DNA of 64,000 nucleotides, from contig JAGWSG010000187.1 in the NCBI GenBank assembly GCA_028876335.1, positions 2,362-66,361 on the forward strand, given 5' to 3'. The DNA comes from Acidobacteriota bacterium (GTDB lineage: Bacteria > Acidobacteriota > Terriglobia > Terriglobales > Acidobacteriaceae). How positions within the stretch are numbered: the stretch's first letter is position 1; every line of letters starts with the position of its first letter. The position numbers and the translations under genes were made by a program. Under the pieces are notes generated by a model. It was not told the DNA's origin. It was given only the letters and a program-made list of their open reading frames with translations, and searched no databases. This document shows positions 25,796 through 60,400 of this stretch, one piece after another.

Positions 25796-25814
25796 TTACT
25801 TGCTATTTGCAAGC
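25796..25814. promoter_or_regulatory. Candidate HxlR operator (TTACTTGC-N5-GCAAGC)
   Basis: Pseudo-palindrome in the divergent gap between the VOC and HxlR genes. A second copy lies at 60382-60400. Confidence 0.65.
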
Positions 25815-25834
25815 GAGATTTATAATCAGCGGAG

Positions 25835-26296
25835 GTGGCAAAAAAGGCCATTCCGAAGAAACGCTCAGGATGCCCGGTCAGCATTGCGCTCGACCTGTTC
25901 GGCGACCGCTGGTCCCTCTTGATTGTGCGAGACATGATGGTGCGCGGTTATCGAACCTTTCGCGAATTCCAGAATTCAGGCGAGGGAATTGCGACCAATA
26001 TTCTCTCCGCGCGTTTGCGTCGCCTTAAAGCAGCTGGCATTCTCACCACCGAGCCCTTGAAGGACGACAAGCGCAGTCTGGCCTATCGGCTCACAGAGAA
26101 GGGAATAGCCCTCGCACCGGTGCTGCTGGAGCTTCTTATCTGGTCCGGAACGCACGAGGAAACGGCCGCCTCCAGGGAAATCATCCGACAAATGGAAACA
26201 AATCGGCAGTCCATCCTCGATGAAACTGTTCGCCGCTGGCGCGAGCATGATCACACACCGCTCATTCCACCCTTTGGCAAGCCAACCCAGGGTTAG
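25835..26296 (+). CDS. HxlR/DUF24-family winged-helix regulator
   Basis: RSGCPVSIALDLFGDRWSLLIVRD, GIATNILSARL, YRLTEKG. GGAGG SD with GTG start. Confidence 0.92.
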   Translation: MAKKAIPKKRSGCPVSIALDLFGDRWSLLIVRDMMVRGYRTFREFQNSGEGIATNILSARLRRLKAAGILTTEPLKDDKRSLAYRLTEKGIALAPVLLELLIWSGTHEETAASREIIRQMETNRQSILDETVRRWREHDHTPLIPPFGKPTQG

Positions 26297-26312
26297 AAAG
26301 GCAACTGCATTG

Positions 26313-26735
26313 ATGAGGACAAACACCTATCTCAACTTTGGCGGCAACTGCGCAGAGGCCTTTCAGTTCTATGCAGATCATCTCGGTGCAAAGGTTGAAG
26401 GCATGATGAAACACAGCCAGATACCCGGCGTGCGGGTTCCTCCTGAGCGTGCAAACGATGTTCTGCATGCGCGTATTACGATTGGCGACGCCGTCATCAT
26501 GGCCAGCTATGTGCCGCCTGAGCGATTCCAACCTATCCGCAGCGTTTACCTATAGCTTCGCGTGGATACCGACGCGGAAGCTGATCGCCTCTTTGAGATC
26601 CTCGGTCAAGGCGGAGAAGTCTACATGCCCATGCAGGAGACCTTCTTCGCATCACGTTATGTGCAATTCCGCGATAGGTTCGGCGTTTCGTGGATGATTA
26701 TCCATCAGAAGGCTATGGGTCCGCCGCCTGCTTAG
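26313..26735 (+). pseudogene. VOC/PhnB-like gene interrupted by one in-frame TAG
   Basis: TYLNFGGNCAEAFQFY...HARITIG...RSVYL*LRVDTDAEADRLFEILGQGGEVYMPMQETFFA...DRFGVSWMI. TAG at 26553-26555; the frame continues to TAG 26733-26735. Confidence 0.85.
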
Positions 26736-26757
26736 CGCGTCGCAAAGAGCAAGGGAT

Positions 26758-27747
26758 TTATTCACCGGGGAAGCGCACGCCGAGTGCAGCGCGTGCGCAC
26801 TCCAGCAGTTCGGCCATTCCAATGGAAAGCGCGTGGCTGATTTCCGTGCTTTCTAATTTGCCCTGGCAGATTAGATCGCAGAAATGCTCCGTCTCATAAT
26901 TGAAGCCGCCGTGCTCATACGGCACTTCCAACTCAACTTTTCGGCCCGATCCATATACAACCGTCGCGTGCACCGGATTCCACCAGTTCTCGTGAATCGT
27001 CACGTAGCCTGTGGTTCCGCAAATCAACGCGTCGCCGCGGCTTAGCAGGTCCAGACCCGTGTGCAATTGCGCCATGCCGTTCCGGTGCTCTGTCTGAAAG
27101 AGCGCGAAAGTATCCACGCCCGCAGCAGAGACGCGGCCCATTGTCTGCACATGGATTAGGGGTCCAAGCCAGTCCAGCGCAAGAAAGGCTTCATACGGGC
27201 CGATTCCCATAATGCCGCCGCCGCCAAGCTCGGTAAAGTGCAGGGGATAATCCGGCGCGCGACTGGAATCACAATGCCCCGCGCGCACATAGCCGACTGG
27301 CCCAATTGGATCGGCCGCAAGATGCGCGCGCAGTCGCTGGTAGAGGGGAAAAAAGGGGGGCTTCATCGCTTCCATGAAGAGCCGCCCGTGCTCCGTCGCC
27401 GTCTCCACAATGCGCCGTACCTGTGCTCCATTCAGCGCCGCAGGCTTCTCGCACAGCACATGCTTTCCGGCTTTCAATGCAGCGCAGGCCAACTCTGCAT
27501 GTGAGTCAGGATGCGTGGCGACATAGACAGCATCGATTGGCGATGCCAGCAGCTCTTCCAATGATTGAGCAACGAAAGGGACCGAAAACCGCTCCGCATA
27601 GCTCCGTGCGCGGTCACCATTACGAGACCATACCCCTGTCAGCGTTGCACCGGGTACTCCGCACAATCCTTCGGCAAAGCGAGCACCTGCGCGCCCCGGG
27701 CCAATGATGCCAAAACGAATTGTGGCGTCGCTTACGTTTGCCGTCAA
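26758..27747 (-). CDS. Gfo/Idh/MocA family oxidoreductase
   Basis: FGIIGPG, VYVATHPDSH, KHVLCEKP, GGG.MGIGPY. Confidence 0.92.
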   Translation of the reverse strand: MTANVSDATIRFGIIGPGRAGARFAEGLCGVPGATLTGVWSRNGDRARSYAERFSVPFVAQSLEELLASPIDAVYVATHPDSHAELACAALKAGKHVLCEKPAALNGAQVRRIVETATEHGRLFMEAMKPPFFPLYQRLRAHLAADPIGPVGYVRAGHCDSSRAPDYPLHFTELGGGGIMGIGPYEAFLALDWLGPLIHVQTMGRVSAAGVDTFALFQTEHRNGMAQLHTGLDLLSRGDALICGTTGYVTIHENWWNPVHATVVYGSGRKVELEVPYEHGGFNYETEHFCDLICQGKLESTEISHALSIGMAELLECARAALGVRFPGE

Positions 27748-27775
27748 AGAACTCTTTCAACGCTGCATACAAAAT

Positions 27776-28636
27776 CTAGCGCAGCAGGTCTTCCAGCGTT
27801 GTACTCAGGTCGGTCTTCTCGTCGCGGTACTTCACAATCACCGGCGCGTAGAGTGAGACACCCCATTCCGCCGCATTCGCGTGTGACTTCTTCTTGTTCA
27901 CTGCGCGCGAGCCCGGAACAACCACCGCGTTCGACGGAACGATCAATGGTCTTTCATTAGAGGCACGAATTACCTCGCCATTCACGAGGTCGAAGATTGG
28001 AGTGCCACGCGTGAGTATTGTTCCAGACGCCAGCACTGCACCCTTGCGCACAATGGTTCCCTCATAAACACCGCAGTTGCCGCCCACCAACACGTCATCT
28101 TCAACCACAACTGGATTCGCATTGACCGGTTCCAACACGCCGCCAATCTGCGCGGCCGCACTCAGGTGCACGCGCTTGCCAATCTGTGCACAACTGCCCA
28201 CCAGCGCATGCGAGTCCACCATCGTGCCTTCATCCACATACGCGCCCACATTCACATACATGGGCGGCATGCAGACCACGCTGCGCGCCAAAAATGCGCC
28301 CGACCGCACAGACGATCCGCCAGGCACCACGCGAATCCCTTCACCCGCCGTGAACTGACGCGCCGGATACGTATGTTTATCAACAAAAGAGAGCGCGCCT
28401 GAAGCCATCTCCTCAAGAGCACCGATTCTAAAGCCGAGAAGAATGCCGCGTTTCACCCAGGCATTCACGCGCCAGCCGTAAGAGTCCGCATCGCTCGGTT
28501 CAGCCGCTCGTATTTCTCCATTTTCGAGCGCGGTGCGCAATGCCAGAAATGCTTCCATCGTTTCGCCGTGCCCAACCGCAGCCGAGCCAGAGGCAAAATG
28601 CCGTTCAATTTCTTCCTGCAATTGTTGTGTGGTCAT
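27776..28636 (-). CDS. dapD: 2,3,4,5-tetrahydropyridine-2,6-dicarboxylate N-succinyltransferase
   Basis: [54 protein letters not shown]. Confidence 0.95.
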
Positions 28637-28809
28637 CGTGTTCGAGTTTATCAAGGAGCCAGAAAGTTCTCCGGCATGATCGTCCAAAAGAAACTTGCGC
28701 AACGTACATATTCGCTATAGGAGTATTGGGAGGCCCTATTCGATTCGAATAAAGCCTTGTGTGCACTCGAAGTATCAATTGCTCGAAGCAACCGTGAAGG
28801 AGTTTGGTC

Positions 28810-29808
28810 ATGTCCAAAATGGACCGCCGTGAGTTTGTGAAGGCAGCCGGAACTGTGGCAGGTGTAATGGCTCTGAACACCAAAGCGGGTGCGGAGTCGA
28901 AGAGTGAAATGATCTACCGCAAGCTCGGCCGCACGGGCGAGGAAGTTTCGGTCATAGGTTTGGGCGGATACCACATCGGTAAAGCCAGCCTGTCAGAGCA
29001 GGATTCTATCCAACTCATTCGCCAGGCAATCGACCGTGGTATTACCTTTCTGGACAATTGCTGGGACTACAACAACGGTGTGAGCGAAGAGCGCATGGGC
29101 AAGGCTCTAACCGGCGGTTATCGCAACAAGGTGTTCCTCATGACGAAAATCGACGGTCGTACCAAGGCTGCCGCCGCGCACCAGATCGATGAGTCGCTGA
29201 AGCGACTGCAAACCGACCACGTGGACCTGATGCAGCATCACGAAGTAATTCGCTTGGAAGATCCCGACCGCATTTTTGCCGAGGGCGGATCCATGGAAGC
29301 ATTGCTAGAAGCGCAGAAAGCAGGCAAGGTTCGCTACATCGGCTTTACCGGCCATAAGGATCCCTACGTCCATCTCCGCATGCTGGAAGAGGCAAAGGCG
29401 CACAACGTGCACTTTGATGCCGTGCAGATGCCCCTGAATGTAATGGACGCACACTTCCGTAGCTTTACGCATGAAGTGCTGCCCGTGCTCGAACGTGAAG
29501 GCATTGCGCCGCTGGGGATGAAGTGCTTCGGTGATCACCACATTCTCGACAGCAAAACAGTTACACCCATTGAGGCGCTTCACTACTGCATGAATCTGCC
29601 CGTTGCGGTGCAGATTACCGGCATCGACAGCCAGCAGATTCTGGATCAGGCATTTGAGGCAGTGCGGACCTTTAAGCCGCTGAGCAAGGATGAAGTTGCC
29701 CGCCTGCTCGATCGTACCCGGGCGGCTGCCATGAACGGTCAATACGAGCTCTACAAGACCACTGCGAACTTCGATGGCACCGCACACAGACCGCAGATGC
29801 TGGGGTGA
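28810..29808 (+). CDS. Aldo/keto reductase with Tat signal
   Basis: DRREFVK Tat motif; GITFLDNCWDY, MTK, SLKRLQTDHVDL, IGFTGH, VQMPLN. Confidence 0.9.
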   Translation: MSKMDRREFVKAAGTVAGVMALNTKAGAESKSEMIYRKLGRTGEEVSVIGLGGYHIGKASLSEQDSIQLIRQAIDRGITFLDNCWDYNNGVSEERMGKALTGGYRNKVFLMTKIDGRTKAAAAHQIDESLKRLQTDHVDLMQHHEVIRLEDPDRIFAEGGSMEALLEAQKAGKVRYIGFTGHKDPYVHLRMLEEAKAHNVHFDAVQMPLNVMDAHFRSFTHEVLPVLEREGIAPLGMKCFGDHHILDSKTVTPIEALHYCMNLPVAVQITGIDSQQILDQAFEAVRTFKPLSKDEVARLLDRTRAAAMNGQYELYKTTANFDGTAHRPQMLG

Positions 29809-29964
29809 GTGTGATGGAATCGTCGATGCGCAGGGCATCTGCAAGTATTGAAATCGTTATGGGGTAAATGTGAAGCCAGCTTAAATGCATTCTGTATCCG
29901 GCGACACGACACGGACAAACCAAAACCGTTACCCTAGATGGTTGATTACTTCGAGGGGTTTGTC

Positions 29965-31494
29965 ATGACCGTTATTCGCCAGCAGGATTTTATCGACTCC
30001 GTTGCCGGAGCGTTGCAATACATCAGTTACTACCATCCGGTCGATTACATCACGTCGCTCGCCAAAGCCTACGAGCGCGAGCAATCGCCTGCCGCGCGAG
30101 ACGCCATGGCGCAGATTCTAATTAACAGCCGCATGTGTTTTGAGGGACACCGCCCCATTTGCCAGGACACCGGCATCGTTAATGTCTTCGTCAAGCTCGG
30201 CATGGACGCGCGCTTCGAAGGTCCCGACCGCAGCGGGCCCACCATGAGTCTGCAGGAAATGGCGGACGCGGGCGTCCGCAAAGCCTATCTCGATCCCGAC
30301 AACACATTGCGTGCCTCGCTCCTCGCAGACCCAGCCGGCGCTCGCAAGAACACAAAAGACAACACGCCTTCGGTCGTTAATGTCGAGCTCGTCCAGGGCA
30401 ACACCTGTGACATCACTGTTGCAGCAAAAGGCGGCGGGAGCGAAGCAAAGTCGAAATTCGTCATGCTCAACCCGTCCGACTCCATTGTGGAGTGGGTACT
30501 CAAAACCGTGCCCACCATGGGTGCAGGCTGGTGCCCGCCCGGCATGCTCGGCATCGGCATCGGCGGCACGGCAGAGAAGGCTATGCTGCTCGCCAAGCAA
30601 TCGCTCATGGACCCCATAGACATCCAGGACCTAATCGCGCGTGGACCTCAAACCACCGCCGAGAAGCTGCGCGTTGAGCTCTATGACAAGGTGAATCGCC
30701 TCGGTATCGGCGCACAAGGGCTTGGTGGTCTTACCACAGTGCTTGACGTAAAAGTGCTCGATACACCCTGCCACGCAGCCAATCTTCCCGTCGCCATGAT
30801 TCCCAACTGCGCCGCCACGCGCCACGCGCATCTGGTGCTCGATGGTTCCGGCCCCGTCTATCTCGATCCTCCTTCGCTTGAAGACTGGCCAAAGCTGACA
30901 TACGACGTCAGCGGCGCAAAGCGAGTCAATCTCGACGCTGTCACGCGCGAAGAAGCTGCGACATGGAAGCCCGGCGAAGTGCTTCTGCTCAATGGCAAGC
31001 TCCTTACCGGCCGCGATGCCGCACACAAACGCATGACAGACATGCTGAATCGCGGCGAAAAGCTTCCTGTCGATTTCAAGGACCGCTTCATCTACTACGT
31101 TGGTCCTGTTGATGCGGTCCGAGAGGAAGTGATTGGACCTGCAGGTCCCACCACTGCCACGCGCATGGATAAGTTCACCCGCCAGATGCTGGCCGAGACT
31201 GGACTCCTCGGTATGGTTGGCAAGGCAGAACGCGGACCTGCAGCCATCGAGGCCATCAAAGAGTTTGGTGCTGTCTATCTCATGGCCGTTGGCGGTGCTG
31301 CGTATCTTGTTGCCAAAGCCATCAAGGCATCAAGACTGCTCGCCTTTGAGGATCTCGGCATGGAAGGAATTTATGAGTTTGAAGTCAAAGATATGCCTGT
31401 CACGGTCGCGGTTGATAGCAAGGGAACAAGCGTCCACATCACTGGCCCCGCCGAGTGGCAGCAGCGTATCGCCGGCATTCCGATCTTGCAGTAG
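29965..31494 (+). CDS. Class I (Fe-S) fumarate hydratase
   Basis: RPICQDTG, AKGGGSE, GWCPPG, IPNCAATRH, GRDAAH, GPTTATRM. Confidence 0.95.
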   Translation: MTVIRQQDFIDSVAGALQYISYYHPVDYITSLAKAYEREQSPAARDAMAQILINSRMCFEGHRPICQDTGIVNVFVKLGMDARFEGPDRSGPTMSLQEMADAGVRKAYLDPDNTLRASLLADPAGARKNTKDNTPSVVNVELVQGNTCDITVAAKGGGSEAKSKFVMLNPSDSIVEWVLKTVPTMGAGWCPPGMLGIGIGGTAEKAMLLAKQSLMDPIDIQDLIARGPQTTAEKLRVELYDKVNRLGIGAQGLGGLTTVLDVKVLDTPCHAANLPVAMIPNCAATRHAHLVLDGSGPVYLDPPSLEDWPKLTYDVSGAKRVNLDAVTREEAATWKPGEVLLLNGKLLTGRDAAHKRMTDMLNRGEKLPVDFKDRFIYYVGPVDAVREEVIGPAGPTTATRMDKFTRQMLAETGLLGMVGKAERGPAAIEAIKEFGAVYLMAVGGAAYLVAKAIKASRLLAFEDLGMEGIYEFEVKDMPVTVAVDSKGTSVHITGPAEWQQRIAGIPILQ

Positions 31495-31524
31495 CCAGAA
31501 GCAATATCCGTTACCGCAAAAGTC

Positions 31525-31561
31525 AAACCGGCCGAAGCGTTACGCTTCGGCCGGTTTATTT
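31525..31561. terminator. Bidirectional intrinsic terminator
   Basis: AAACCGGCCGAAGCG-tta-CGCTTCGGCCGGTTT followed by a T-run, between convergent genes. Confidence 0.85.
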
Positions 31562-31590
31562 TTCCGTACAGAAATGACTGCGACTCCTTC

Positions 31591-32331
31591 TTACCTCTTC
31601 CCAAACCGATACACAAACCCGTAGTTGAATCCGAACGAGTTCTGCATTGTTGAGCCGAATCCGGTATCGAGATAATCACCTGCCAGGCGCAGGCTGAAAT
31701 TGGGAGTGATGTTGGTCTCGCCGATAATCGACCCGTTAATGGCATAGGTGGTGCCGTCCGGGAAAAGTCCAAGATTCGCCGTTCCGAATCCGTTCGTGTC
31801 GCCGGAGAAGTTGCCCATCGCTACACCGCCCATCACGCGGCCCGCAATTGAATACTTTGGGTTAGCGATGAACCGATAAGTGGGACCCACAAGTACGTCA
31901 TACTGGCTAATGGCCGGGCGCGTAATGCCCGTAAAGTTCACACCAACAAACGGTGTACCGTAGTAGCCGCGCCCGTCCACAGTCACGCCCAGCTTATTGC
32001 TGAAGTTGCGGCTCAGCGCAGTATCGAACGAATAAAGAGTCACGTGCTGCAACTTGGGTCCTGGCTGGAAGCGCAGATAGCCGCCTCCCAGAAAAATCTC
32101 GTACTTATTGCCGTAGGTATCACGAATAGCCTGCGCACGGCGTGCTTCGCGACGTGCACGGATGCGAGCCTGTACGCTGAGCTCTCCAGGCGTAAGCTCC
32201 GGCTGCTGGCTCTGCTTCGCGGCAGGTGCCTCGGTGCTGGAACTGCTCGAACTGGATGATTGCGCCATTACGGCAGGTGCGGCGGGCAAAAGTAAAGCCA
32301 GCCCAAGGGCAAAAAACCGACAGGAAACCAT
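31591..32331 (-). CDS. Small outer-membrane beta-barrel protein
   Basis: Signal peptide, Ser-rich linker, alternating hydrophobic strands, C-terminal YGFVYRF. Confidence 0.7.
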   Translation of the reverse strand: MVSCRFFALGLALLLPAAPAVMAQSSSSSSSSTEAPAAKQSQQPELTPGELSVQARIRARREARRAQAIRDTYGNKYEIFLGGGYLRFQPGPKLQHVTLYSFDTALSRNFSNKLGVTVDGRGYYGTPFVGVNFTGITRPAISQYDVLVGPTYRFIANPKYSIAGRVMGGVAMGNFSGDTNGFGTANLGLFPDGTTYAINGSIIGETNITPNFSLRLAGDYLDTGFGSTMQNSFGFNYGFVYRFGKR

Positions 32332-32576
32332 TTCTTTCGGGATACCTCCACAACAAGACGGAAGCACCCGCAAAGAAGCGCTCCCCCAACTGGTATTAAA
32401 CCATTTCAGGGGTGGTGTCGGGGTGGTTCGCTGGTCATTGGACGCGTAAGAAGCTCATTCGCATCCGATGAGAGTGCTTTTCGAGCGTGCCGAATTCAGT
32501 GAAGGCGGGGCCGGTGATACCGTAGAACAGGGCGCACTTTGCTCAGGTACTACTATTTGCGGAGGAATCTTCCCAG

Positions 32577-33227
32577 ATGGGCCGAGTTTTCTTTGGGTTT
32601 CTCATTGGTGTGCTCGCTGTGATTGCTGGAGCAATCGCATGGCTTTCCTATGGCAATGTGCCGGTTGCGGTTACAGATGCTCCCTTTCCCATGGAGCGTT
32701 TTCTTACCCACATACCGCTCAATGACCGCATTCAGAAAGAAATGATCAAGATGCCGCCAGTTCTCGCCAACGAGCAGAACCTGGTGGCAGGCGCGCGCAT
32801 TTATGCAGACAAGTGCGCCGTATGCCACGGCCTCCACGGCAAACCCTCCAGCATTGGGGGAAATATGTATCCTCCTGCTCCGCCACTATGGGAGCAGCAC
32901 AAGAACAGCTCGGTCGTCGGCGTGAGTGATGATCCTGCAGGCGAAACATTCTGGAAAATCAAAAATGGCATCCGCCTTACGGGTATGCCAACCTATCGCA
33001 ATGAACTGACCGACACTGAGATTTGGCAAGTGAGCCAATTGCTGGCCAATGCCGACAAGCCCCTTCCGCCGGCCGCATTACAGATCCTGAGTGTTGCGTC
33101 CCCTGCGCACGACGCTAAAGCGAAGCCGTCAGATTCTAAGGATCCTGCATCTCCCTGGTGGAAGGACCTCAGCGACGGAGGCAAATCCGGCTCCGCTTCA
33201 ACCTCTGATTCGGCGGCCCCCCAGTAA
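32577..33227 (+). CDS. Membrane-anchored monoheme cytochrome c
   Basis: N-terminal TM, CAVCH heme motif, GIRLTGMP distal Met. Confidence 0.9.
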   Translation: MGRVFFGFLIGVLAVIAGAIAWLSYGNVPVAVTDAPFPMERFLTHIPLNDRIQKEMIKMPPVLANEQNLVAGARIYADKCAVCHGLHGKPSSIGGNMYPPAPPLWEQHKNSSVVGVSDDPAGETFWKIKNGIRLTGMPTYRNELTDTEIWQVSQLLANADKPLPPAALQILSVASPAHDAKAKPSDSKDPASPWWKDLSDGGKSGSASTSDSAAPQ

Positions 33228-33296
33228 AGTGACCAGAGAGGTTTATCCGGCAGCGCTGAAAGGCTTCTCAAATACAATTGCAGGAGGAGGAATTCT

Positions 33297-33407
33297 ATGA
33301 GCGTGATGGAAAGCCTGCGCAATGGCTTTAAGTTCTTCCTCATGAGTTTGGGCATTTCAACTCCCGCAAAGAAACCCCAGGCTGCGCCACCAGCAAAGCC
33401 TAAGTAA
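33297..33407 (+). CDS. Small protein (36 aa), not in the ORF track
   Basis: AGGAGGAGG SD, then MSVMESLRNGFKFFLMSLGISTPAKKPQAAPPAKPK*. Confidence 0.65.
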   Translation: MSVMESLRNGFKFFLMSLGISTPAKKPQAAPPAKPK

Positions 33408-33669
33408 GTCTCGCCTTCATATGTGCGGCTGCAGATGTGTCACGGCTCTTGCCTTATCAGGATTCCTGTTTCATGATGACGAGCCAATCTCCATAACGAG
33501 TGGCCATAAAAGTAGCACTATCTTTCTTAGAAGTGCGTGGGGCCATCTGCACAATATTCAAATGTTCCTTTCAGTTATTTGCTACCCGCTTAATCCTCCC
33601 TATGAAGGATGGTGACCTGTTAGCCTGTTGCGCGGATGCAGTGAGTCCTCCTGCCTTGGAGTTTTTCCG

Positions 33670-34755: not shown

Positions 34756-34770
34756 TTCAATCCACTTCGG

Positions 34771-34795
34771 AGACCGCGGCGGATAGTCGCGGTCT
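34771..34795 (+). terminator. Hairpin after the GH88/105 gene
   Basis: AGACCGCGGC-ggata-GTCGCGGTCT with a weak U-tract. Confidence 0.5.
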
Positions 34796-34853
34796 TGAAA
34801 TCTGAATCCAGCCGTCGCAAAATCTGCTCCAATAGAGAGGGCAGGGTGTGGAT

Positions 34854-35030
34854 ATGGCAGATGGTCAACGTCGGGGGTTCTTCAGAGCATTCCTCGACTT
34901 CTTTATCCTCTTCAACGGCATCTCAACAGCTTCGAACCTCTCGCGCACGCAACGCGCTCCGGTCAAACGGCGTGGCTTGTTTCTCTTCCGTTCGAAGAAG
35001 GAAAACCGGCCAACATCGCCCGTTTCCTGA
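34854..35030 (+). CDS. Small basic protein (58 aa)
   Basis: Purine-rich SD (GAGAGGG/AGGG); MADGQRRGFFRAFLDFFILFNGISTASNLSRTQRAPVKRRGLFLFRSKKENRPTSPVS*. It fills the gap before mqnC. Confidence 0.55.
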   Translation: MADGQRRGFFRAFLDFFILFNGISTASNLSRTQRAPVKRRGLFLFRSKKENRPTSPVS

Positions 35031-35076
35031 CCTCCGTTTGCCTGACCCAGACCCCTGCTCCCTGTAGACTATAGCC

Positions 35077-36123: not shown

Positions 36124-36158
36124 GGTCGCATACTGGTTCTTTAAGCCCGCAACCCTAA

Positions 36159-37252: not shown

Positions 37253-37270
37253 GCCTTGAGGAGGATAACT

Positions 37271-46525: not shown

Positions 46526-46548
46526 CCCCGGAGAAATCCTCTGGAATA

Positions 46549-46577: not shown

Positions 46578-46599
46578 CCTTATTTAAGCCTGAGTGCGA

Positions 46600-51509: not shown

Positions 51510-51676
51510 GTGTACGAGAGCCAGCCTCTGCTGCCCACCCCTCCCAAACTTGACTTTTCATTCATGAAAAGAGTTACCGCCATGGCACTCGTCGCATGGA
51601 AGTCACGTTCTGCATTTGCTTGCAAACTATTGCCGTGATACGTTCCTCAATAAATTGCCGTATATAGAGATTCTCC

Positions 51677-52882: not shown

Positions 52883-52909
52883 ACATGCCCCGCAATTTAT
52901 ACTTCAGTC

Positions 52910-54004
52910 GTGATGCCGCCTGAGGAAATGCTTGACTGGCACGCCTTTCTGGCGCGTCCTCCACTTGCGTCTCCCTCGCAGGAAACGCTTCGCGCACTCT
53001 CTCATCAGACCATTCTGATTACAGGGGCGGGCGGTTCCATTGGCTCTGCACTCGCGCTACGCCTTGCCCATACACAGGCCGCATCGCTGCTACTGCTCCA
53101 GTCATCTGAGTCGCATCTCGCCGCGCTCCAGAAAGCTCTGCGCAATTGCAGCATTGCGGTCGAACTTGAATTCGTTCTCGGCAATGCCGGCGACGCCGTG
53201 CTTCTCAACAAAATCTTCGCCACTCACGCGCCTCAACTCGTCTTTCATACCGCCGCGTACAAGCAGGTCCCGCTCCTTGAGTCGCAGCCTTTTGCCGCGC
53301 TTGAAAACAACGCACTCGTCACAAACACGCTCGCGGACATTTGCGCAAAGCACAAATCCACGCTCGTCCTGCTCTCCACAGACAAGGCAGCCGCGCCGTC
53401 TTCCATGCTGGGTGCCAGCAAGCGTCTCGCGGAGCTTTCTGTGCTTTCTTCTGGCGGACGCGCGGTCCGCTTCGGTAACGTACTCGGCTCGCGTGACAGC
53501 GTGACCCACATCTTTGCCCGCCAGGCGTTGCAGGGTGGCCCTCTCACCGTCACCGATCCTGAAGCCGAGCGTTACTTCCTCACCGTTGACGACGCCGTCA
53601 ATCTCCTGCTTGCCGTTGCCGCTGAACCTGCTCCCGGACTCTTCGCTCCCAGGCTTCAGACCTCGTACTGCATTGCCGATCTGGCGCGTTACATCGCAAA
53701 CACGCTCAAGCCTGAAAACAATCTCCGCATCGCATTTTCCTCGCTCCGCGCCGGAGAAAAGCTCATCGAGCAACTCTGGTCTCCCGATGAAAACGCCATA
53801 CCCGCATTGAATCCTGATCTGTATCGCATCGCAACACCGCTTCCCGCGCCTGCCAGGCTCGCACAAATCGTCGCAACTCTCGCGGCCGCGTGCAATGCGC
53901 GCGATCTCACTGCGGCGCTCGATGTAATCCGCGAAGCCATACCTGCATATGTGCCTGGCCCCACCGTTCTCTCATCGCAACCGTCAGCGCGGGTAACCCC
54001 ATGA
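52910..54004 (+). CDS. CapD/PglF-like NDP-sugar 4,6-dehydratase domain (soluble, short)
   Basis: ITGAGGSIG, HTAAYKQVP, LSTDKA, GASKR, VRFGNVLGSR, GEKL.E.L. Confidence 0.85.
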   Translation: MMPPEEMLDWHAFLARPPLASPSQETLRALSHQTILITGAGGSIGSALALRLAHTQAASLLLLQSSESHLAALQKALRNCSIAVELEFVLGNAGDAVLLNKIFATHAPQLVFHTAAYKQVPLLESQPFAALENNALVTNTLADICAKHKSTLVLLSTDKAAAPSSMLGASKRLAELSVLSSGGRAVRFGNVLGSRDSVTHIFARQALQGGPLTVTDPEAERYFLTVDDAVNLLLAVAAEPAPGLFAPRLQTSYCIADLARYIANTLKPENNLRIAFSSLRAGEKLIEQLWSPDENAIPALNPDLYRIATPLPAPARLAQIVATLAAACNARDLTAALDVIREAIPAYVPGPTVLSSQPSARVTP

Positions 54005-55194
54005 GCCAGCCAACCGCAAATAAACGCCGCATAGGCGTCGTCACCACGTCGCGTGCCGACTACAGCCACCTCTACTGGCCACTGCGTGAACTCGCCGCGC
54101 GCAACGACATCGAACTCGGCGTCTTCGTCCTCGGCCCGCATCTCTCTCCGCTCTACGGCAACACGATTGCCGAAATTGAGCGCGACGGCTTTCCCATCAA
54201 AGCCCGCATCGAGTGCTTGCTCAGTTCCGATACAGACACCGGTATGGCCAAAACCATTGGCATCGCCATCGTCTCGCTCGCTGACGCGCTCACCGCCTGG
54301 CGCCCCGACATTCTTCTCCTCATCGCGGATCGCTATGAGATGCTCGCCCCTGCCGCCGTTGCCGTCGCCATGCGTATTCCCATCGCGCATATTGAGGGCG
54401 GGGAAGTAAGCCAGGGCGCAATCGACGACCAGATTCGCAACGCCCTCACCAAGCTCGCGCATATCCACTTCACGTCCACTGAGACAGCGCGCCGTCGCGT
54501 CATCTCCATGGGCGAGGAACCTTGGCGCGTCCATCACGCCGGCGCACCGTCCCTCGATCACATGCGCCGCTCCACACTGCTTGATCGAACAGCGCTCGAA
54601 GGCGAACTGAAAATCACTCTCGCCTCACCCACACTCCTCGCCGCTTGGCATCCGGTCACCATTCTGCAAAATACCAATGCGGAGGCAGATGCGTTTTTCG
54701 CCGCGCTCGCGCAATGGCACGGGCAACTGCTCTTCGTCTTCCCCAACTCCGACGCCGGCAGTCACGCGCTCATCGACCGCACCCGTGCCCTCGCCGCCTC
54801 CCGGGCAGATGCACACATTTTCGTGAACTTGTCCGCAGTCACCTATTGGAGCCTCTTGGGTCAGGTCGATGCCATGATTGGAAACTCTTCCAGCGGCATC
54901 ATGGAGGCAGCCTCCTTCGCTCTTCCCGCAATCAACGTTGGCATGCGCCAGCAGGGTCGCGAACGCGCCGCCAACACGCTGGATGCACCCGCTGACGCGG
55001 CAGCCATTTCCGAGGCCCTCAACCGCGCGCTCAATCCTGCCTTTCGTACATCACTCCAAGGCATGGCCAATCCCTACGGCAACGGCACCGCCGCCGAAAC
55101 CATCGCCCGCGTGCTTGCATCAGTTCCGCTCGGAAATATTCTCATCAAGCAACCTACCCCCGTACCGGAGCATGTAAGGGAGAAAGGCGCATGA
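54001..55194 (+). CDS. neuC: UDP-N-acetylglucosamine 2-epimerase (hydrolysing)
   Basis: VVTTSRADY, GPHLSP.YG, ADRYEML, HIEGGE.SQGAIDD.IRNALTKLAHIHF, GNSSSGIMEA, RQQGR, NPYGNG. Confidence 0.92.
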   Translation: MSQPTANKRRIGVVTTSRADYSHLYWPLRELAARNDIELGVFVLGPHLSPLYGNTIAEIERDGFPIKARIECLLSSDTDTGMAKTIGIAIVSLADALTAWRPDILLLIADRYEMLAPAAVAVAMRIPIAHIEGGEVSQGAIDDQIRNALTKLAHIHFTSTETARRRVISMGEEPWRVHHAGAPSLDHMRRSTLLDRTALEGELKITLASPTLLAAWHPVTILQNTNAEADAFFAALAQWHGQLLFVFPNSDAGSHALIDRTRALAASRADAHIFVNLSAVTYWSLLGQVDAMIGNSSSGIMEAASFALPAINVGMRQQGRERAANTLDAPADAAAISEALNRALNPAFRTSLQGMANPYGNGTAAETIARVLASVPLGNILIKQPTPVPEHVREKGA

Positions 55195-55823
55195 TTGGCT
55201 CGCAGGAAATGCTCCGGAAGGGGGCGCGCATCATTGAGCCTGTACTTCAACCGTGGGGCTTTGAGTTTCGTCATTTCGGCGCAGGCGCTAGTTCTGGCGG
55301 GCAATTCGCGAGCGGTGAATTCTTTCGTTTGAACCGCAGTCTCGAACTGCATTTTCGAAATAGCCTCGGGCTCGTTACCTATTCAGCCGGTCAATTCAAT
55401 ACTTCCCATGAGACATACATGCGTGAGCTGGGGGTCTGGAACGATTGTCATTACCCGGGCTTCTCGTCAGATCCGCTCCAGGCTTTCGCTGGACTTGCTC
55501 ATGATCTCCAGTTCGCTGAGGATTTTCTCCACGGCTCTGCGGAGGTGCTAGAGCGGGCTGCGGTGAATGAGGCCGCTTCCAACGCGCAAAAGACGGAAGC
55601 GGATATGGCTTCATACGTTGGAGATACTGCGCAACTGACAACTCTGCATGATGCCTTCTACGCGCGCGATTACAACCAGGTACTCGCGATTGCCGCAATA
55701 CTCAAATACCCTGATCGTTTGAGCAGAGCGCAGCAAACCATGATTCAGATAGCCCGTGACAGGTCAAATCCAGTTCAAGAGCATTCATTTTTCAAGCTGT
55801 CCAAAGATCAGGGGCGCAAGTGA
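55191..55823 (+). CDS. Hypothetical protein embedded in the sugar operon
   Basis: 210-aa ORF with ATGA overlap to neuC and GTGA overlap to the aminotransferase. No recognisable motif. Confidence 0.65.
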   Translation: MIGSQEMLRKGARIIEPVLQPWGFEFRHFGAGASSGGQFASGEFFRLNRSLELHFRNSLGLVTYSAGQFNTSHETYMRELGVWNDCHYPGFSSDPLQAFAGLAHDLQFAEDFLHGSAEVLERAAVNEAASNAQKTEADMASYVGDTAQLTTLHDAFYARDYNQVLAIAAILKYPDRLSRAQQTMIQIARDRSNPVQEHSFFKLSKDQGRK

Positions 55824-56959
55824 AAATCCCCCTCTCAGCTCCCGACATCACCGAAGCCGAAATCGCCGCTGTCACGCGTGTCCTCCGCACGCCTCATCTC
55901 AGCCTCGGCCCTGAACTCACCGCATTCGAGCAGGAGTTTGCCGCTTACCACCGCGTGCCGCACGCCGTCGCCGTCAGCTCAGGCACCGCAGGCCTCCACC
56001 TCGCACTTCTTACCCTCGGCATCGGCCCCGGCCACGAAGTCATTCTCCCCGCCTTCACCTTCGTCGCCGTCGCCAACGCCGTCCTTCAGGTAGGTGCAAA
56101 ACCTGTTCTGGCCGACATCGACGCCACCACGCTCAACCTCGACCCCGCAAGCGTCGAAGAAAAAATCACCCCGCGCACGCGTGCCATCATCGCCGTTCAC
56201 ACCTTCGGCATCCCTGCGGATATCGATGCGCTGCTCGACATCGCGCGCCGTGACAACCTCTTCCTTATAGAGGATGCGTGTGAGGCTATCGGAGCCGAGT
56301 GGAACTCGCCGGTCCACTCTGGTCGCGCCGGCAGTTTCGGCCATCTTGCCGTCTTCGGCTTCTACCCCAACAAGCAAATCACCACTGGTGAGGGCGGAAT
56401 GGTCCTCGCGCACGACCCCGTGCACGCCGACCGCCTTCGTTCCCTGCGTAATCAGGGCCGCCTCCCAGGGGCCGGCTGGCTCGACCATTCCGAGCCCGGC
56501 TATAACTACCGTCTCTCCGAGTTAGCCTGCGCACTCGGCCGCGTCCAGCTCACCCGGCTTCATGAGATTCTTCCCCTCCGCGCTTCCGCCGCCCAGTGCT
56601 ACAACAATCTGCTTGCCGGCGTTGACGATCTCATTCTTCCGCCCCTCGCCGTGTCCCATCGCACTCTCAGTTGGTTTGTGTATGTCGTACAAATTCCAAA
56701 TTCCATCGCGCGGCAAACCAACGGCCGTGCCCGCATCCGCCAGGCACTGGAAGAGCAGGGAATCGCGACCGGCCTCTATTTCCCGCCGCTCCATCGCCAG
56801 CCGGCATTGGGAGCTTCTGTCGGAGGCTCCGGTTTTCACCTTCCCGTCACAGAAAGCGTTTCCAGTCGAACCCTGGCCCTGCCATTCTTCACGCGCATCA
56901 CAACCGAAACGCAGAGCTTCGTCGCCCAGGCACTTCTCGCCGCCCTTCAAACAAAGTGA
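55820..56959 (+). CDS. DegT/DnrJ/EryC1/StrS PLP aminotransferase
   Basis: SSGTAGLH, IEDACEAIG, FGFYPNKQITTGEGG, GYNYRLSE, LALPF. Confidence 0.95.
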   Translation: MKIPLSAPDITEAEIAAVTRVLRTPHLSLGPELTAFEQEFAAYHRVPHAVAVSSGTAGLHLALLTLGIGPGHEVILPAFTFVAVANAVLQVGAKPVLADIDATTLNLDPASVEEKITPRTRAIIAVHTFGIPADIDALLDIARRDNLFLIEDACEAIGAEWNSPVHSGRAGSFGHLAVFGFYPNKQITTGEGGMVLAHDPVHADRLRSLRNQGRLPGAGWLDHSEPGYNYRLSELACALGRVQLTRLHEILPLRASAAQCYNNLLAGVDDLILPPLAVSHRTLSWFVYVVQIPNSIARQTNGRARIRQALEEQGIATGLYFPPLHRQPALGASVGGSGFHLPVTESVSSRTLALPFFTRITTETQSFVAQALLAALQTK

Positions 56960-57202
56960 TTTCCATCGCCACCATCGGAGCACCCTGACACTCTGATAAT
57001 GGACGTTCCAACGACTCACTGAAGAATTTTGATGGAACTTACGTGTTTTTAATAAGGCATAGATACCTTTCCGCCCTACACTACATCTAATCCAGTAACA
57101 AGCAGTTGCAGTTATCCAACCCCTGGGGCTTGGGTTTCTGCTTTCTCTCTTTGCAAACTTGTTCGTATCGCGAAAGCCTGCACGAAACGGCGGGCGTGTC
57201 GC

Positions 57203-57231
57203 TTGACAGGGGATAGAAACGAGCGCATCAT
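57203..57231 (+). promoter_or_regulatory. Candidate sigma70 promoter
   Basis: TTGACA-N17-CATCAT upstream of a structured leader. Confidence 0.5.
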
Positions 57232-57365
57232 CGTGCCAAATTGGGATCGGAAATCACTCTAATCCCGACGGCGAACTACGCAGTTCGCCGTCAAGGGCAA
57301 TGTTCTGCTACGACTTTCCTCAGCACCCTGGACTCACAAGAGTCTTTTCTCATGAGAAGGTGCCT

Positions 57366-57701
57366 ATGGTGGTTCGAACGCAATGCAAGGGTCGCACTTT
57401 TACAGGGCTCCATGTTGGAGTAACGAATGCACGCCGCTATTTTCCAAAGGGCACTCCGGCTGTAGATCTCTTTCTCGATCATCTCCAGATTCAATGTGCG
57501 CTTAAACCTGATTTCTGGGATGGTGAAGCAGACATCACCGACGCCCGGCTCAGTGCATGGCTTGAGGCAAAGCATCCAAACGGAACGCCGTGTCGACAGC
57601 CAATTGCGCTTGATCTGGTCCCCGCGGGAAATAATGCATTTCGGTTGCAGGCCATTTCTGCGCATCAAGTCAAAGTTGTCGTACCTCAGAATGCAGCCTG
57701 A
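57366..57701 (+). CDS. Small hypothetical protein (111 aa)
   Basis: GAAGG SD; MVVRTQCKGRTFTGLHVGVTNARRYFPKG...LSAWLEAKH. Plausible globular composition. Confidence 0.7.
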   Translation: MVVRTQCKGRTFTGLHVGVTNARRYFPKGTPAVDLFLDHLQIQCALKPDFWDGEADITDARLSAWLEAKHPNGTPCRQPIALDLVPAGNNAFRLQAISAHQVKVVVPQNAA

Positions 57702-57755
57702 CCTGTATGAGTCTCGATCGACAGCCTGCCGCAGCTTTCTGCTCAAGAGATAAGT

Positions 57756-57793
57756 GTATGTGCGATTTCAAATCAATTTGAAATCGCACATAC
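57756..57793. repeat. Perfect 17-bp inverted repeat
   Basis: GTATGTGCGATTTCAAA-tcaa-TTTGAAATCGCACATAC abutting the ribD stop. Confidence 0.9.
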
Positions 57794-58918
57794 CTATTTC
57801 CAGGGATCGTGCAGCAGGACGCCAATACCAATATCGTCCTCAAACTGCTCCACATCCACACTTCCCAGTCTCACAAATTCACTCAACGCGCCAAACGCTG
57901 GCCTCGCTTCTGATCCAAGCATCTTCGGTGCAACGTAAAGCTGCAGCCTGTCCACCAACCCCTCGTTCAGCAACGCCGTATTCAGCCGAGTTCCAGACTC
58001 TGTCATCAGCGAAAGAATCTCATTCGCGCCCAGCCAGTCAAGCACCTTTTCGAGAGGCACGCGTTCGCCTTCGGCCTCCAGCACTTCCACGCGCACTCCG
58101 CGTTCGCGCAAAGCCTGTGCACGCTCCTCATCGCTTGACACCGTAAAAACCACCACATCGCCTTCAACGGTATCAACCAGCTTCGCGTCCAGCGGCATCC
58201 GCAGCTTCGAATCCAGCACAGCTCTAAGTAGATTCCGCCGCCTCGGCAGTCCACTCCGGTCCGTCAGCAGCGGATCGTCCGCCAGAACCGTATCGATCCC
58301 CGTGATTACCGCATCCACTTCGTGGCGCATCCGCTGCACTTCAGCGCGAGACACTTCGCTTGTAATCCAGTACGGTGTACCCGCTGCATGCACGCCGGCC
58401 GCCGGCGCAATCCGCCCATCCAGCGTCATGGCCACCTTCATCCGCACAAAGGGCCGCTTCGTCCGAACCCACTTCGCGAATCCCTCGTTCAGCCGCCGGG
58501 CGCCTTCTTCACACACACCTACAGTCGTCTTAATCCCCGCGGCATTCAGCGCGGTAATCCCGCCGCTGGCCTCAGGATTCGGATCGCGCGTCGCAGCCAC
58601 AACCCTTGCAACGCCCGCCTCAATCAATGCCTGCGAGCACGGCCCCGTCCGGCCCCTGTGATTGCACGGCTCCAGCGTCACATACGCTGTCGCTCCCTTC
58701 AGCCGCTCCAGCGCATCCTTTTTCGCCTCTTTGATCGCAACCACTTCTGCATGATCCATTCGGTCATACTCGTGCCATCCTTCGCCAATCGCAAGGCCGT
58801 CGGCGTCCACAAGCACACACCCCACAACCGGGTTGGGCGAAGCCAACCCAACACCGCGCGCGGCAAGCTCCAGCGCACGCTGCATCCATTGGTTATCGAT
58901 TTCGTCGTGTGTGTTCAT
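57794..58918 (-). CDS. ribD: Bifunctional diaminohydroxyphosphoribosylaminopyrimidine deaminase/reductase
   Basis: SPNPVVGCV, HAEV, TLEPCNH.GRTGPC, KVAMTLDG, DDPLLTDR. Confidence 0.96.
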   Translation of the reverse strand: MNTHDEIDNQWMQRALELAARGVGLASPNPVVGCVLVDADGLAIGEGWHEYDRMDHAEVVAIKEAKKDALERLKGATAYVTLEPCNHRGRTGPCSQALIEAGVARVVAATRDPNPEASGGITALNAAGIKTTVGVCEEGARRLNEGFAKWVRTKRPFVRMKVAMTLDGRIAPAAGVHAAGTPYWITSEVSRAEVQRMRHEVDAVITGIDTVLADDPLLTDRSGLPRRRNLLRAVLDSKLRMPLDAKLVDTVEGDVVVFTVSSDEERAQALRERGVRVEVLEAEGERVPLEKVLDWLGANEILSLMTESGTRLNTALLNEGLVDRLQLYVAPKMLGSEARPAFGALSEFVRLGSVDVEQFEDDIGIGVLLHDPWK

Positions 58919-59026
58919 CGCAAGTGAAGAGAACTCTCAACTCGAATTGCATGCCAAAGTCAGACCGATTTCATTGGAACTCTGCACCGAATTAACCCAT
59001 TCCGAACGAATGGGATCGGCAAGTTG

Positions 59027-59215
59027 CTAAAGCGCACTCTTCGCTTTGCGTATCTGGAACAGAAAAATCAAATTCACCAGCGTTAGCAAAATCACCGCTG
59101 ACACTACCAGAGCAATCATGGGTGCTCCGCGAAAATACTGGTAAACCAGGCCCGCAATCACAGCCACGTTAATCAGCAAAATCCGGTTCGGCAGCGACAT
59201 CTTCTTCTTATCCAT
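59027..59215 (-). CDS. Small two-TM membrane protein
   Basis: 62 aa with two hydrophobic helices, co-oriented between ftsY and ribD. Confidence 0.65.
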   Translation of the reverse strand: MDKKKMSLPNRILLINVAVIAGLVYQYFRGAPMIALVVSAVILLTLVNLIFLFQIRKAKSAL

Positions 59216-59241
59216 GGCGCTCTCCAGCAGCGATACTCTAA

Positions 59242-60216
59242 CTACCCCAGCAGCGCCTCCACAAAATCCCCCGGCGCAAACTCCAGCAGATCCGTCATCT
59301 TCTCACCCACACCCACATAGCGCACCGGCAAATTCAGCTCGCGCGCAATCGCTACTGCAATGCCGCCCTTCGCCGTACCGTCCAGCTTCGTCAACACAAT
59401 CCCCGTCACGCCGGCACTCTCGGCAAACTGCCGCGCTTGCTGCAGCCCATTCTGCCCCGTCGTCGCATCCATCACCAGCAGCACTTCATGCGGAGCGCCT
59501 GGTACCAGCTTCGCCGCCGTGCGCCGCATCTTGTCCAGTTCGTCCATCAAGCCGCTCTTGGTGTGCAGCCGCCCCGCCGTATCCACAATCACTTCCTGCA
59601 CGCCGCGCGCCTTCGCCGCATGCGCTGCGTCATACAACACGGCTGATGGATCGCCGCCCTGCTTTGTCTTGATCATCTCCACGCCCGAGCGCTGCGCCCA
59701 CACTTCAAGCTGCTCAATGGCCGCCGCGCGAAACGTATCCGCCGCGCACAGAAGTACCGTCTTGCCTTCACCCTGCAGCCACGCGGCAAGCTTCCCGCTC
59801 GTCGTCGTCTTTCCTGCGCCGTTCACACCCACCAGAAAGGTCACCTTCGGCGGCGTCGCCGGCTCTGTCACAACCACCCGTGGAGCTTCCAGAATCGCCT
59901 GCAACTGCTCCTTCAGCAGCGTCCGCAACTCCGCCCCGCCCTCAATCTCCTGCCGCTTTGCCCTCTCGCGCAACGCATCCAGAATCGCGGTCGTCGTCGG
60001 CACGCCTAGATCACTGGTCAGCAGCACAGCTTCCAGGTCTTCCAGCGCACTTTCGTCCACCGTGCGCGTCATGGCCACAATGTCACCCAGCCGCGTTTGC
60101 AGTGAGTCCCGCGTCCGCGTTACAGCGTCGCGCATGCGCCCAAAAAATCCGCGCTTCTCTTCCGGTTCCTGCGCCTTTTCAGGCTCTTTGCTGCTGCCAA
60201 AAAGTGAAATCACCAT
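59242..60216 (-). CDS. ftsY: SRP receptor FtsY
   Basis: GVNGAGKTTT, DTFRAAA, DTAGRLH, DATTGQNG, TKLDGTAKGG. Confidence 0.97.
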   Translation of the reverse strand: MVISLFGSSKEPEKAQEPEEKRGFFGRMRDAVTRTRDSLQTRLGDIVAMTRTVDESALEDLEAVLLTSDLGVPTTTAILDALRERAKRQEIEGGAELRTLLKEQLQAILEAPRVVVTEPATPPKVTFLVGVNGAGKTTTSGKLAAWLQGEGKTVLLCAADTFRAAAIEQLEVWAQRSGVEMIKTKQGGDPSAVLYDAAHAAKARGVQEVIVDTAGRLHTKSGLMDELDKMRRTAAKLVPGAPHEVLLVMDATTGQNGLQQARQFAESAGVTGIVLTKLDGTAKGGIAVAIARELNLPVRYVGVGEKMTDLLEFAPGDFVEALLG

Positions 60217-60254
60217 CGCATTCGTCCAGTTTCCAGTCTAAAGCCCGCCACACG

Positions 60255-60290
60255 CGGGTGCCCGAACGCTACCTTTCCGTTGGGCACCCG
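60255..60290. repeat. GGGTGCCC-type inverted repeat in the ftsY leader
   Basis: CGGGTGCCC-N18-GGGCACCCG; REP-like palindrome. Confidence 0.55.
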
Positions 60291-60381
60291 GAATAAATCG
60301 AAACTCATCCGACCGCAGTATGATTTCTCCTCCACAGCCCTTCTGGCGCGTAAACGCCGCCTGCTGCATGCAATGCAAAAT

Positions 60382-60400
60382 TTACTTGCAAAATGCAAGC
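60382..60400. promoter_or_regulatory. Second copy of the candidate HxlR operator
   Basis: TTACTTGC-aaaat-GCAAGC, about 70 bp upstream of the BNR gene. Both arms are identical to 25796-25814. Confidence 0.6.

Follow-up and report, generated by a model that had tools for sequence, protein, structure and literature searches.

A palindrome shared by two distant loci

We analysed a 64,000-nucleotide stretch of DNA (hereafter the window) from an Acidobacteriota bacterium of the Acidobacteriaceae (assembly GCA_028876335.1, contig JAGWSG010000187.1, positions 2,362 to 66,361), in which two intergenic regions 34.6 kb apart carry the same short inverted repeat. One copy lies between a gene for an HxlR-type regulator (hxlR) and a divergent VOC-superfamily gene, the other upstream of a gene pair encoding a beta-propeller protein and a ubiquitin-like protein (Ubl), and our subject is the candidate regulon that these genes may form. 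The genes and elements involved are listed here by window position, with scores in bits from the weight matrix described in the next section:

25246-25716, minus strand: VOC1, a PhnB-like VOC protein (PF06983, 1.1e-37), divergent from hxlR
25796-25814: site 1, TTACTTGCTATTTGCAAGC, between the divergent VOC1 (minus) and hxlR (plus)
25796-25816, unstranded: predicted operator 1, the 21-bp palindrome TTACTTGCTATTTGCAAGCGA, common to the VOC1 and hxlR promoters, 28.8 bits
25835-26296, plus strand: hxlR, an HxlR/DUF24-family winged-helix regulator of 153 amino acids (PF01638, 58.4 bits against a cut-off of 20.8)
26313-26735, plus strand: VOC2, a glyoxalase/PhnB-like gene 16 nt after hxlR in the same operon, with an in-frame TAG at 26553-26555
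60382-60400: site 2, TTACTTGCAAAATGCAAGC, in the divergent gap between ftsY (59242-60216, minus) and the propeller gene, ending 70 nt before the ATG of the latter (60470)
60382-60402, unstranded: predicted operator 2, the 21-bp palindrome TTACTTGCAAAATGCAAGCCA, 5' of the propeller gene, 27.2 bits
60470-61642, plus strand: a BNR/Asp-box seven-bladed beta-propeller of 390 amino acids without a signal peptide (Pfam Sortilin-Vps10 and BNR matches)
61722-62030, plus strand: Ubl, a beta-grasp protein of 102 amino acids with the C-terminus GAIAGG (AlphaFold2 model and Foldseek)

A pattern scan of the whole window found two copies of the exact pattern TTACTTGC-N5-GCAAGC, namely sites 1 and 2, and the sole further match, with two mismatches, lies at 9744-9762. 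The original prediction, a first reading of the sequence that had noticed no further copy, had located both sites correctly, and its figure of about 70 bp between the second site and the BNR/MoaD operon agrees with the 70 nt measured to the ATG. The core of site 2 is a perfect palindrome (CTTGCA-AAA-TGCAAG), and that of site 1 contains a single asymmetric base (CTTGCt-ATT-TGCAAG). The TGCAA half-site core is present twice more just 5' of operator 2 (60366-60399, TGCATGCAATGCAAAAT), and near the same operator an AATGCAA repeat recurs at a distance of 21 nt, an arrangement that is not kept in the closest relative, L166 (described below).

Both sites belong to a rare motif conserved in orthologous promoters

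Motif frequency and conservation were assessed in two sets of loci. The propeller set comprises 80 species-level loci around orthologues of the propeller gene (1.17 Mb in all), mostly from Acidobacteriota, with some from Chthoniobacterales, Gemmataceae, Manganitrophaceae and Binatia and one from an actinomycete, and the hxlR-centred set comprises 80 metagenomic loci that encode the HxlR homologues closest to the window protein (61-71% identity). A weight matrix was built from the 26 hxlR-linked sites of the propeller set, all from other genomes and with no window sequence used, and yielded the 21-bp consensus T-[CAT]-A-CTTGCA-NNN-TGCAAG-T-[GAT]-A, with an information content of about 28 bits. 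With this matrix the two window sites reach 28.8 bits (site 1) and 27.2 bits (site 2), and the third best position 7.9 bits; when the window was simulated 300 times under a first-order Markov model, the maximum averaged 8.6 bits and peaked at 20.3 bits.

Across the propeller set the motif proved rare, with 41 matrix hits of at least 12 bits, 40 of which are at expected upstream positions: 26 hits lie beside hxlR, 12 in a propeller promoter without hxlR in the locus, and 2 upstream where hxlR is degraded or missing, leaving 1 stray hit. No hit of at least 12 bits was found 3' of the propeller start anywhere in these 1.17 Mb. The simpler pattern CTTGC-N5-GCAAG is seen in about 30 of the 80 loci, nearly always 5' of the propeller gene, where about 0.016 occurrences per locus would be expected. 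All 26 hxlR relatives in the propeller set are preceded by the palindrome (0-1 mismatch) 13-39 nt before their start codon, with a distance of 64 nt in L076. Within the hxlR-centred set, a site of at least 14 bits is present in 78 of the 80 loci and in most of them begins 39 or 40 nt ahead of the hxlR start codon (39 nt for the window site), and the two siteless loci have less than 51 nt of upstream DNA, so that the count among assessable loci is 78 of 78. In total, 104 of 104 assessable hxlR promoters from both sets carry the palindrome at a fixed distance.

In the 12 propeller promoters without hxlR in their locus the site stands about 90-200 nt ahead of the ATG, which is the arrangement of the window itself. 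The nearest relative, L166, a Terracidiphilus metagenome-assembled genome with a 92% identical Ubl, has kept both the RibD-FtsY-propeller-Ubl synteny and the site, and a four-way alignment of the ftsY/propeller gap (A3) displays three conserved blocks: the part nearest ftsY, the palindrome together with the block behind it, and the ribosome-binding site. The two checks proposed with the original prediction, of motif frequency and of conservation in orthologous promoters, therefore both came out in its favour, and the two window sites are, almost certainly, genuine members of this motif family. A chance match, or the remnant of a duplicated segment, retains a negligible probability as the source of their identity: by our estimate, a gapped match of 14 bases is not rare in 64 kb when all pairs of positions are considered, but the matrix scores are far above the null and the site is conserved in orthologous promoters, and the sequences on either side of the two sites bear no relation to each other, contrary to what a duplication would leave.

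Four loci (L110, L144, L150 and L154) carry two palindromes 41-42 nt apart, a spacing of about four helical turns; relative to the hxlR start they are placed at -79 to -84 and at -38 to -43. In all four, the propeller and Ubl genes come directly after hxlR. The paired arrangement hints at cooperative binding of two dimers.

The palindrome as a probable protein-recognition element

An inverted repeat of this size could also act as a hairpin, either as a terminator or as another RNA element, and a terminator scan did flag site 1 on both strands, with a 6-bp stem and a T-rich tail. Among 103 distinct sites, however, the TTGC and GCAA cores are practically invariant and positions 4-8 show a single base-pair type. 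Changes without compensation are found at positions 4/18 in 32 sites and at positions 3/19 in 46, with no compensatory pair change at all. Since the core sequence is invariant and changes go without compensation, the palindrome behaves like a protein-recognition element rather than a hairpin. Both sites moreover lie between divergently transcribed genes, and at site 2 the terminator scan calls nothing. We thus regard a hairpin function as highly improbable; the terminator-like call at site 1 is a by-product of the palindrome.

An HxlR-family regulator with a single cysteine

The HxlR protein encoded beside site 1 matches 11 family members in the Protein Data Bank (PDB) at E<=4e-4, the closest sequences being PA1607 (2F2E, 7.5e-19), YybR/HypR (4A5M) and YodB (5HS7). 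The reactive cysteine of this family stands at the N-terminus of helix 1, as Cys14 in HypR and Cys6 in YodB. The window protein contains a single cysteine, Cys13, within the sequence RSGCP, and the original prediction of an HxlR regulator with an N-terminal cysteine in this motif is borne out both by the PF01638 match and by the presence of Cys13-Pro14 in all 106 HxlR relatives, in alignment with the cysteine of PA1607 and YybR. A second cysteine is found in 78 of these 106 relatives, at the position of Arg114 in the window protein (codon 26174-26176), and most relatives thereby resemble YodB, which has a C-terminal second cysteine. With one cysteine only, a YodB-type disulfide switch cannot operate as such here. 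PA1607 of Pseudomonas aeruginosa shares the C-P motif and, at 146 amino acids, a C-terminal extension past the core of about 110 amino acids; being uncharacterised, it offers no guide to mechanism.

Likenesses to characterised regulators are found with YodB and CatR of Bacillus subtilis and QsrR of Staphylococcus aureus, which are thiol-switch repressors of the DUF24/HxlR family with an N-terminal cysteine, acting on quinone and diamide detoxification genes. Diamide and quinones inactivate YodB and CatR, whose targets are an azoreductase, a nitroreductase and the VOC-type dioxygenase CatE (PMC3351151). The likeness would extend to a palindromic, promoter-overlapping operator and, as with CatE, to putative targets of the VOC superfamily (PMC3351151). 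Unlike the characterised members, which come from Firmicutes and Corynebacterium, the window protein belongs to an Acidobacteriota host, and unlike YodB it has one cysteine only. To our knowledge, the YodB and QsrR boxes are unlike T-N-A-CTTGCA-N3-TGCAAG-T-N-A, and we know of no beta-propeller or ubiquitin-like target in any DUF24 regulon.

Predicted promoter layout around the candidate operators

Each half-site includes a -35-like hexamer, TTGCAA or TTGCAT, and on each of the three promoter types (hxlR, VOC1 and propeller) a conserved -10-like block lies at a distance of 17-19 nt from the TTGCAA hexamer. The corresponding predictions in the window are:

25800-25828, plus strand: predicted hxlR core promoter, with a -35-like TTGCTA (25800-25805) in the left half-site and a -10-like TATAAT (25821-25826) or TAATCA (25823-25828)
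25807-25812 and 25788-25783, minus strand: predicted VOC1 promoter, with a -35-like TTGCAA and a weak -10 TGGGAT, respectively; relatives have a conserved TG-n-TA-ag-AAT after the site
60386-60415, plus strand: predicted propeller promoter, with a -35-like TTGCAA (60386-60391) in the left half-site, an 18-nt spacer and a -10-like AAAAAT (60410-60415)

In an alignment of 79 hxlR promoters, T-A-[AG]-G-A-T is found at +7 to +12 after the 21-mer and a GTG at about +20. The GTG start of the window hxlR follows its -10-like element by about 7-9 nt, and because the start codon is so close behind the -10, the hxlR mRNA is probably leaderless. On the propeller side, the arrangement [site]-N7-AA[AG]AAT (+8 to +13) is kept in 13 orthologous upstream regions as well as in alignment A3, and the predicted promoter matches only 8 of 12 consensus bases, too few to be called by a strict sigma-70 scan. 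An operator that covers the -35 and the spacer would therefore be in a repressor position.

A candidate HxlR regulon split into two loci

A tblastn map of the propeller set placed an HxlR homologue (45-67% identical to the window protein) beside the propeller gene in 26 of the 80 loci, often together with homologues of VOC1 and VOC2, and with hxlR and the propeller gene co-directional in 13 and divergent in 13. Likewise, about 10 of the 80 hxlR-centred loci contain hxlR-propeller-Ubl(-VOC1) operons. The genes for HxlR, VOC1, VOC2, the propeller and Ubl are therefore adjacent in many genomes, which the original prediction had proposed to look for. This linkage suggests that the regulon is contiguous in many relatives and is split here into two loci that would be held together by the operator.

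In our reading, it is quite probable that one HxlR-type repressor acts through the two operators, autoregulating its own gene and co-regulating VOC1, VOC2 and the propeller/Ubl operon. The adjacent HxlR is very likely the protein that binds the palindromes, and it likely does so as a repressor. Since the family members YodB and CatR are inactivated by diamide and quinones, a thiol-reactive inducer is a reasonable assumption, and we give an even chance to the signal being such a compound. In the mechanism that we propose, an HxlR dimer bound to the palindrome would occlude RNA polymerase and keep the regulated genes, along with hxlR itself, repressed. Operator 1 would do so at the centre of two back-to-back promoters, one for hxlR-VOC2 and the other for the divergent VOC1, and operator 2 over the -35 and spacer of the promoter of the propeller/Ubl operon. 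Modification of Cys13, either S-alkylation or S-thiolation by a quinone, aldehyde, diamide or hypochlorite, would release HxlR and turn all genes on together. The induced set would then consist of the PhnB-type VOC1 (VOC2 being inactivated), the cytoplasmic Asp-box propeller and the MoaD/Urm1-like protein, whose flexible GG tail may be bound or processed by the propeller. Together these products may form a detoxification or conjugation pathway, as the original prediction proposed.

Two alternatives concern the regulator itself. The palindrome could be bound by another factor, such as a paralogue of HxlR from elsewhere in the genome or a regulator unrelated to it, with the adjacent hxlR as a mere target, and the 12 propeller promoters that carry the site without hxlR in their locus would be compatible with such a scheme. 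Against it, a site at fixed distance in 104 of 104 hxlR promoters is typical of a local regulator under autoregulation, the site occurs only beside hxlR or in propeller loci across the 1.17 Mb apart from one 14.7-bit hit, and the 64-kb window contains no second HxlR-like gene, which together leave this option very unlikely. Alternatively, HxlR could bind both sites as an activator, in the manner of HxlR and HypR of B. subtilis, and switch the genes on after its modification. An activator would fit the four loci in which another site precedes the first by 41 nt, as well as the failure of a strict sigma-70 scan to call any promoter over the sites, but the -10-like block 17-19 nt from the TTGCAA half-site on the three promoter types puts the operator over the -35 and spacer, and the site ends about 19 nt before the hxlR start codon, with no room for a promoter downstream. 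We hence consider activation unlikely, if less so than binding by another factor.

Several observations nevertheless weigh against a single HxlR repressor joining the two loci. Our view is of 64 kb of the genome, and a paralogous HxlR encoded elsewhere could serve site 2. With Arg114 in place of the second cysteine, the window copy is a one-cysteine variant of a mostly two-cysteine regulator. Within the same family, HxlR and HypR act as activators, i.e., as positive regulators (PMC3351151). A strict sigma-70 scan calls no promoter at site 1, at site 2 or after the Ubl gene, and thus none overlapping the sites; we infer the promoter layout, and hence the term "repressor", from conservation only. 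For the Ubl, no ThiS or MoaD model is matched (Pfam at E<=1, NCBIfam at E<=0.1), and no E1-like family was recognised among the 30 most recurrent neighbours of the propeller gene, only some of which were scanned against Pfam. Lastly, the site and hxlR are both absent from 39 of the 80 propeller loci, and the FtsY-syntenic loci L001, L002 and L012 are among those lacking the site. Membership of the regulon is therefore lineage-specific and evolutionarily labile.

In two siteless loci (L011 and L019), a different element, ATAAAATCGTATAAAATCGAT, is found about 40-70 nt 5' of the propeller start, after a -35 of the TTGAC type, and similar promoters occur in L006, L017, L021 and L025. This suggests that another regulator may act on the propeller operon in Sulfotelmatobacter- and Acidiferrales-type genomes.

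The propeller and its probable ubiquitin-like partner

The propeller protein is related over its full length to PDB entry 3B7F (Reut_B4987 of Ralstonia eutropha; E 1.6e-64, 31% identity, residues 4-385; Foldseek TM 0.80-0.85), and its AlphaFold2 model has a pLDDT of 77 and a pTM of 0.84. The 3B7F structure has 7 blades and 5 Asp-boxes, and its function is listed as "not known" (PMC2716378). Seven histidines (H40, H165, H181, H233, H236, H253 and H284) are common to both proteins. The Cys/His motifs highlighted by the original prediction fared unequally: GHCVHH is largely conserved among the 80 orthologues (H233 in 79, C234 in 80, H236 in 80 and H237 in 68), whereas the cysteine of GGLCLH is variable (67 C, 13 G). 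Reut_B4987 and its kin differ in their context, since the betaproteobacterial loci examined show neither HxlR nor the palindrome. More generally, no HxlR and no palindrome was found near the propeller homologues of Streptomyces, Marivivens, Ralstonia and Cupriavidus (30-39% identity).

Homologues of the propeller form more than 8000 clusters at 90% identity and are named "PSII stability/assembly factor-like", "exo-alpha-sialidase" or hypothetical. The sialidase names are automatic annotation, and the lack of a signal peptide together with the Ubl partner argues against a secreted glycosidase. A GH74-type cleft between two propellers cannot form in a protein with a single propeller. Other Asp-box propellers include Ycf48/HCF136 and sortilin Vps10, for which PDB entries with a D1 peptide (Ycf48) and a progranulin peptide (sortilin) provide a precedent for the binding of a flexible tail by a propeller, though the structural likeness is distant (TM 0.36-0.62, 12-16% identity).

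For the Ubl, the AlphaFold2 model has a pLDDT of 92.9, with the tail below 50, and the top 15 Foldseek matches are all SAMP1, CysO, MoaD, Urm1 or MoaD-related proteins (TM 0.62-0.84, 11-25% identity). In 32 aligned sequences, the terminal GAIAGG is invariant at G97, A98, A100, G101 and G102 and retains I99 in at least 90%; 21 of these proteins end at the GG and the others carry 1-9 extra residues, and GG is present in 54 of 54 aligned Ubl loci. The description of this protein as sulfur-carrier-like with a C-terminal GG is hence supported by its fold, even though no Pfam or NCBIfam model matches. Like MoaD, ThiS, CysO, SAMP1 and Urm1, it combines this fold with a C-terminal Gly-Gly, which stands free at the end in some sequences and precedes 1-9 further residues in others, in the way of carriers whose tail must be processed. 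Unlike them, it matches no sequence model, has low identity to them (11-25%), and contains an Arg-rich insert in which R53, R60, R61 and R65 are invariant. Its homologues exceed 8000 clusters at 90% identity, and some of these are named "MoaD/ThiS family" or "sulfur-carrier protein" at source.

The two genes are closely associated: the Ubl gene lies 3' of the propeller gene on the same strand in 71 of the 80 loci, at a distance of 150 nt or less in 42, and in Ralstonia solanacearum a MoaD/ThiS gene is found directly 5' of a 30%-identical propeller gene. The propeller is thus the constant partner of the Ubl, in place of MoaE, ThiG or CysM. We consider it likely that propeller and Ubl act as a physical or functional pair. 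That the chemistry of the Ubl involves a thiocarboxylate or conjugation is a more tentative proposal, and on balance a doubtful one. Urm1 conjugation is triggered by oxidants and coupled to cysteine persulfidation (PMC9574740), a precedent that would fit the control of the Ubl by a thiol sensor. Taken further, the propeller and Ubl could be a stress-induced bacterial counterpart of Urm1/SAMP, in which the GG tail would be activated to a thiocarboxylate by a housekeeping E1 and the propeller would serve as a dedicated partner, either an enzyme or a targeting factor, for sulfur delivery or conjugation to oxidised or alkylated targets or for the neutralisation of electrophiles. This extended scenario is less probable still, and we rate it as unlikely.

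The regulator and operator logic is of a known kind, and what would be new is the placement of a propeller and a sulfur-carrier-type Ubl under a putative HxlR-type sensor. In the literature searched, we found no description of a system combining HxlR, MoaD and BNR proteins, only the Asp-box survey on 3B7F/Reut_B4987, and nothing relevant on HxlR in Acidobacteria. Both families comprise more than 8000 sequence clusters each, and for one propeller homologue a structure has been available since 2007, but no assigned function. A link to a putative thiol or electrophile sensor and a PhnB-type VOC protein would thus offer a testable induction condition, a defined promoter and operator, and a first experimental handle on the pair. 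It would also represent a clean case of a regulon that forms one operon in some genomes and is joined only by its operator in others. The reading as a counterpart of Urm1/SAMP would, if true, add a new class of sulfur-carrier partner.

Propeller sequence variants and genomic neighbourhood

The propeller is 73-81% identical across the 80 species-level loci, an unusually high value given that these span bins of Acidobacteriota, Verrucomicrobiota, Planctomycetota, Nitrospirota, Binatia and Actinomycetota, and one that suggests very strong constraint, horizontal transfer between soil bacteria or the mis-binning of contigs. Propeller entries of 455-486 amino acids were considered as possible propeller-Ubl fusions and rejected, three containing an internal duplication and one an over-extended N-terminus. 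In the former (P0122, P0124 and P0143), about 65-95 propeller residues are duplicated internally, and these entries are likely assembly chimeras.

Recurrent small proteins around the propeller gene include PF06983 VOC and glyoxalase-like VOC proteins, RibD_C, DUF4760, YCII, GyrI-like and ArsR proteins, and a 240-amino-acid secreted protein, and no recurrent JAMM or sulfurtransferase family was found in this neighbourhood. A role as a defence system was also considered and set aside, as a PADLOC search of four proteins returned zero matches. In L020, L024, L026 and L033, the propeller and Ubl genes are separated by two genes of opposite orientation, one for a KaiC-like ATPase and one for a response-regulator/histidine-kinase-like protein (about +1200 to +4400 from the propeller start). 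A conserved protein of 118-137 amino acids without family assignment follows the Ubl in the same four loci and in L008. In the window, a DUF3303 gene (62106-62453, minus strand) is convergent to the Ubl gene and shows no sign of belonging to the propeller/Ubl operon; homologues of it are found near the propeller gene in L002, L010, L043 and L166.

The VOC genes and a neighbouring sigma factor

The original prediction had included two PhnB-type VOC proteins in the regulon, which holds for VOC1 through its PF06983 match but not in full for VOC2, whose reading frame contains a premature stop and whose PF00903 match is sub-threshold (17.3 bits against 20.6). Of the 80 hxlR-centred loci, 52 contain a recognisable divergent VOC1, many of the others having short upstream sequence, and in most of the 80 the distance from hxlR to the VOC2 that follows it is as in the window. 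At the codon that is TAG in the window, VOC2 orthologues encode serine (29), threonine (14), alanine (12) or cysteine (7), and the closest ones have serine (...SVYLSL...). Since the frame is otherwise intact, the stop would be either a recent nonsense mutation (TCG to TAG being one change) or an assembly error.

Beside VOC1 and convergent with it, the window encodes an extracytoplasmic function (ECF)-type sigma factor and an RskA/zf-HC2 anti-sigma factor (23788-25238, plus strand). This sigma/anti-sigma pair was evaluated as the source of the shared motif and rejected, the motif being a palindrome and an anti-sigma gene being found near hxlR in only 2 of the 80 hxlR-centred loci. An anti-sigma homologue lies 5' of hxlR in L152 and L153.

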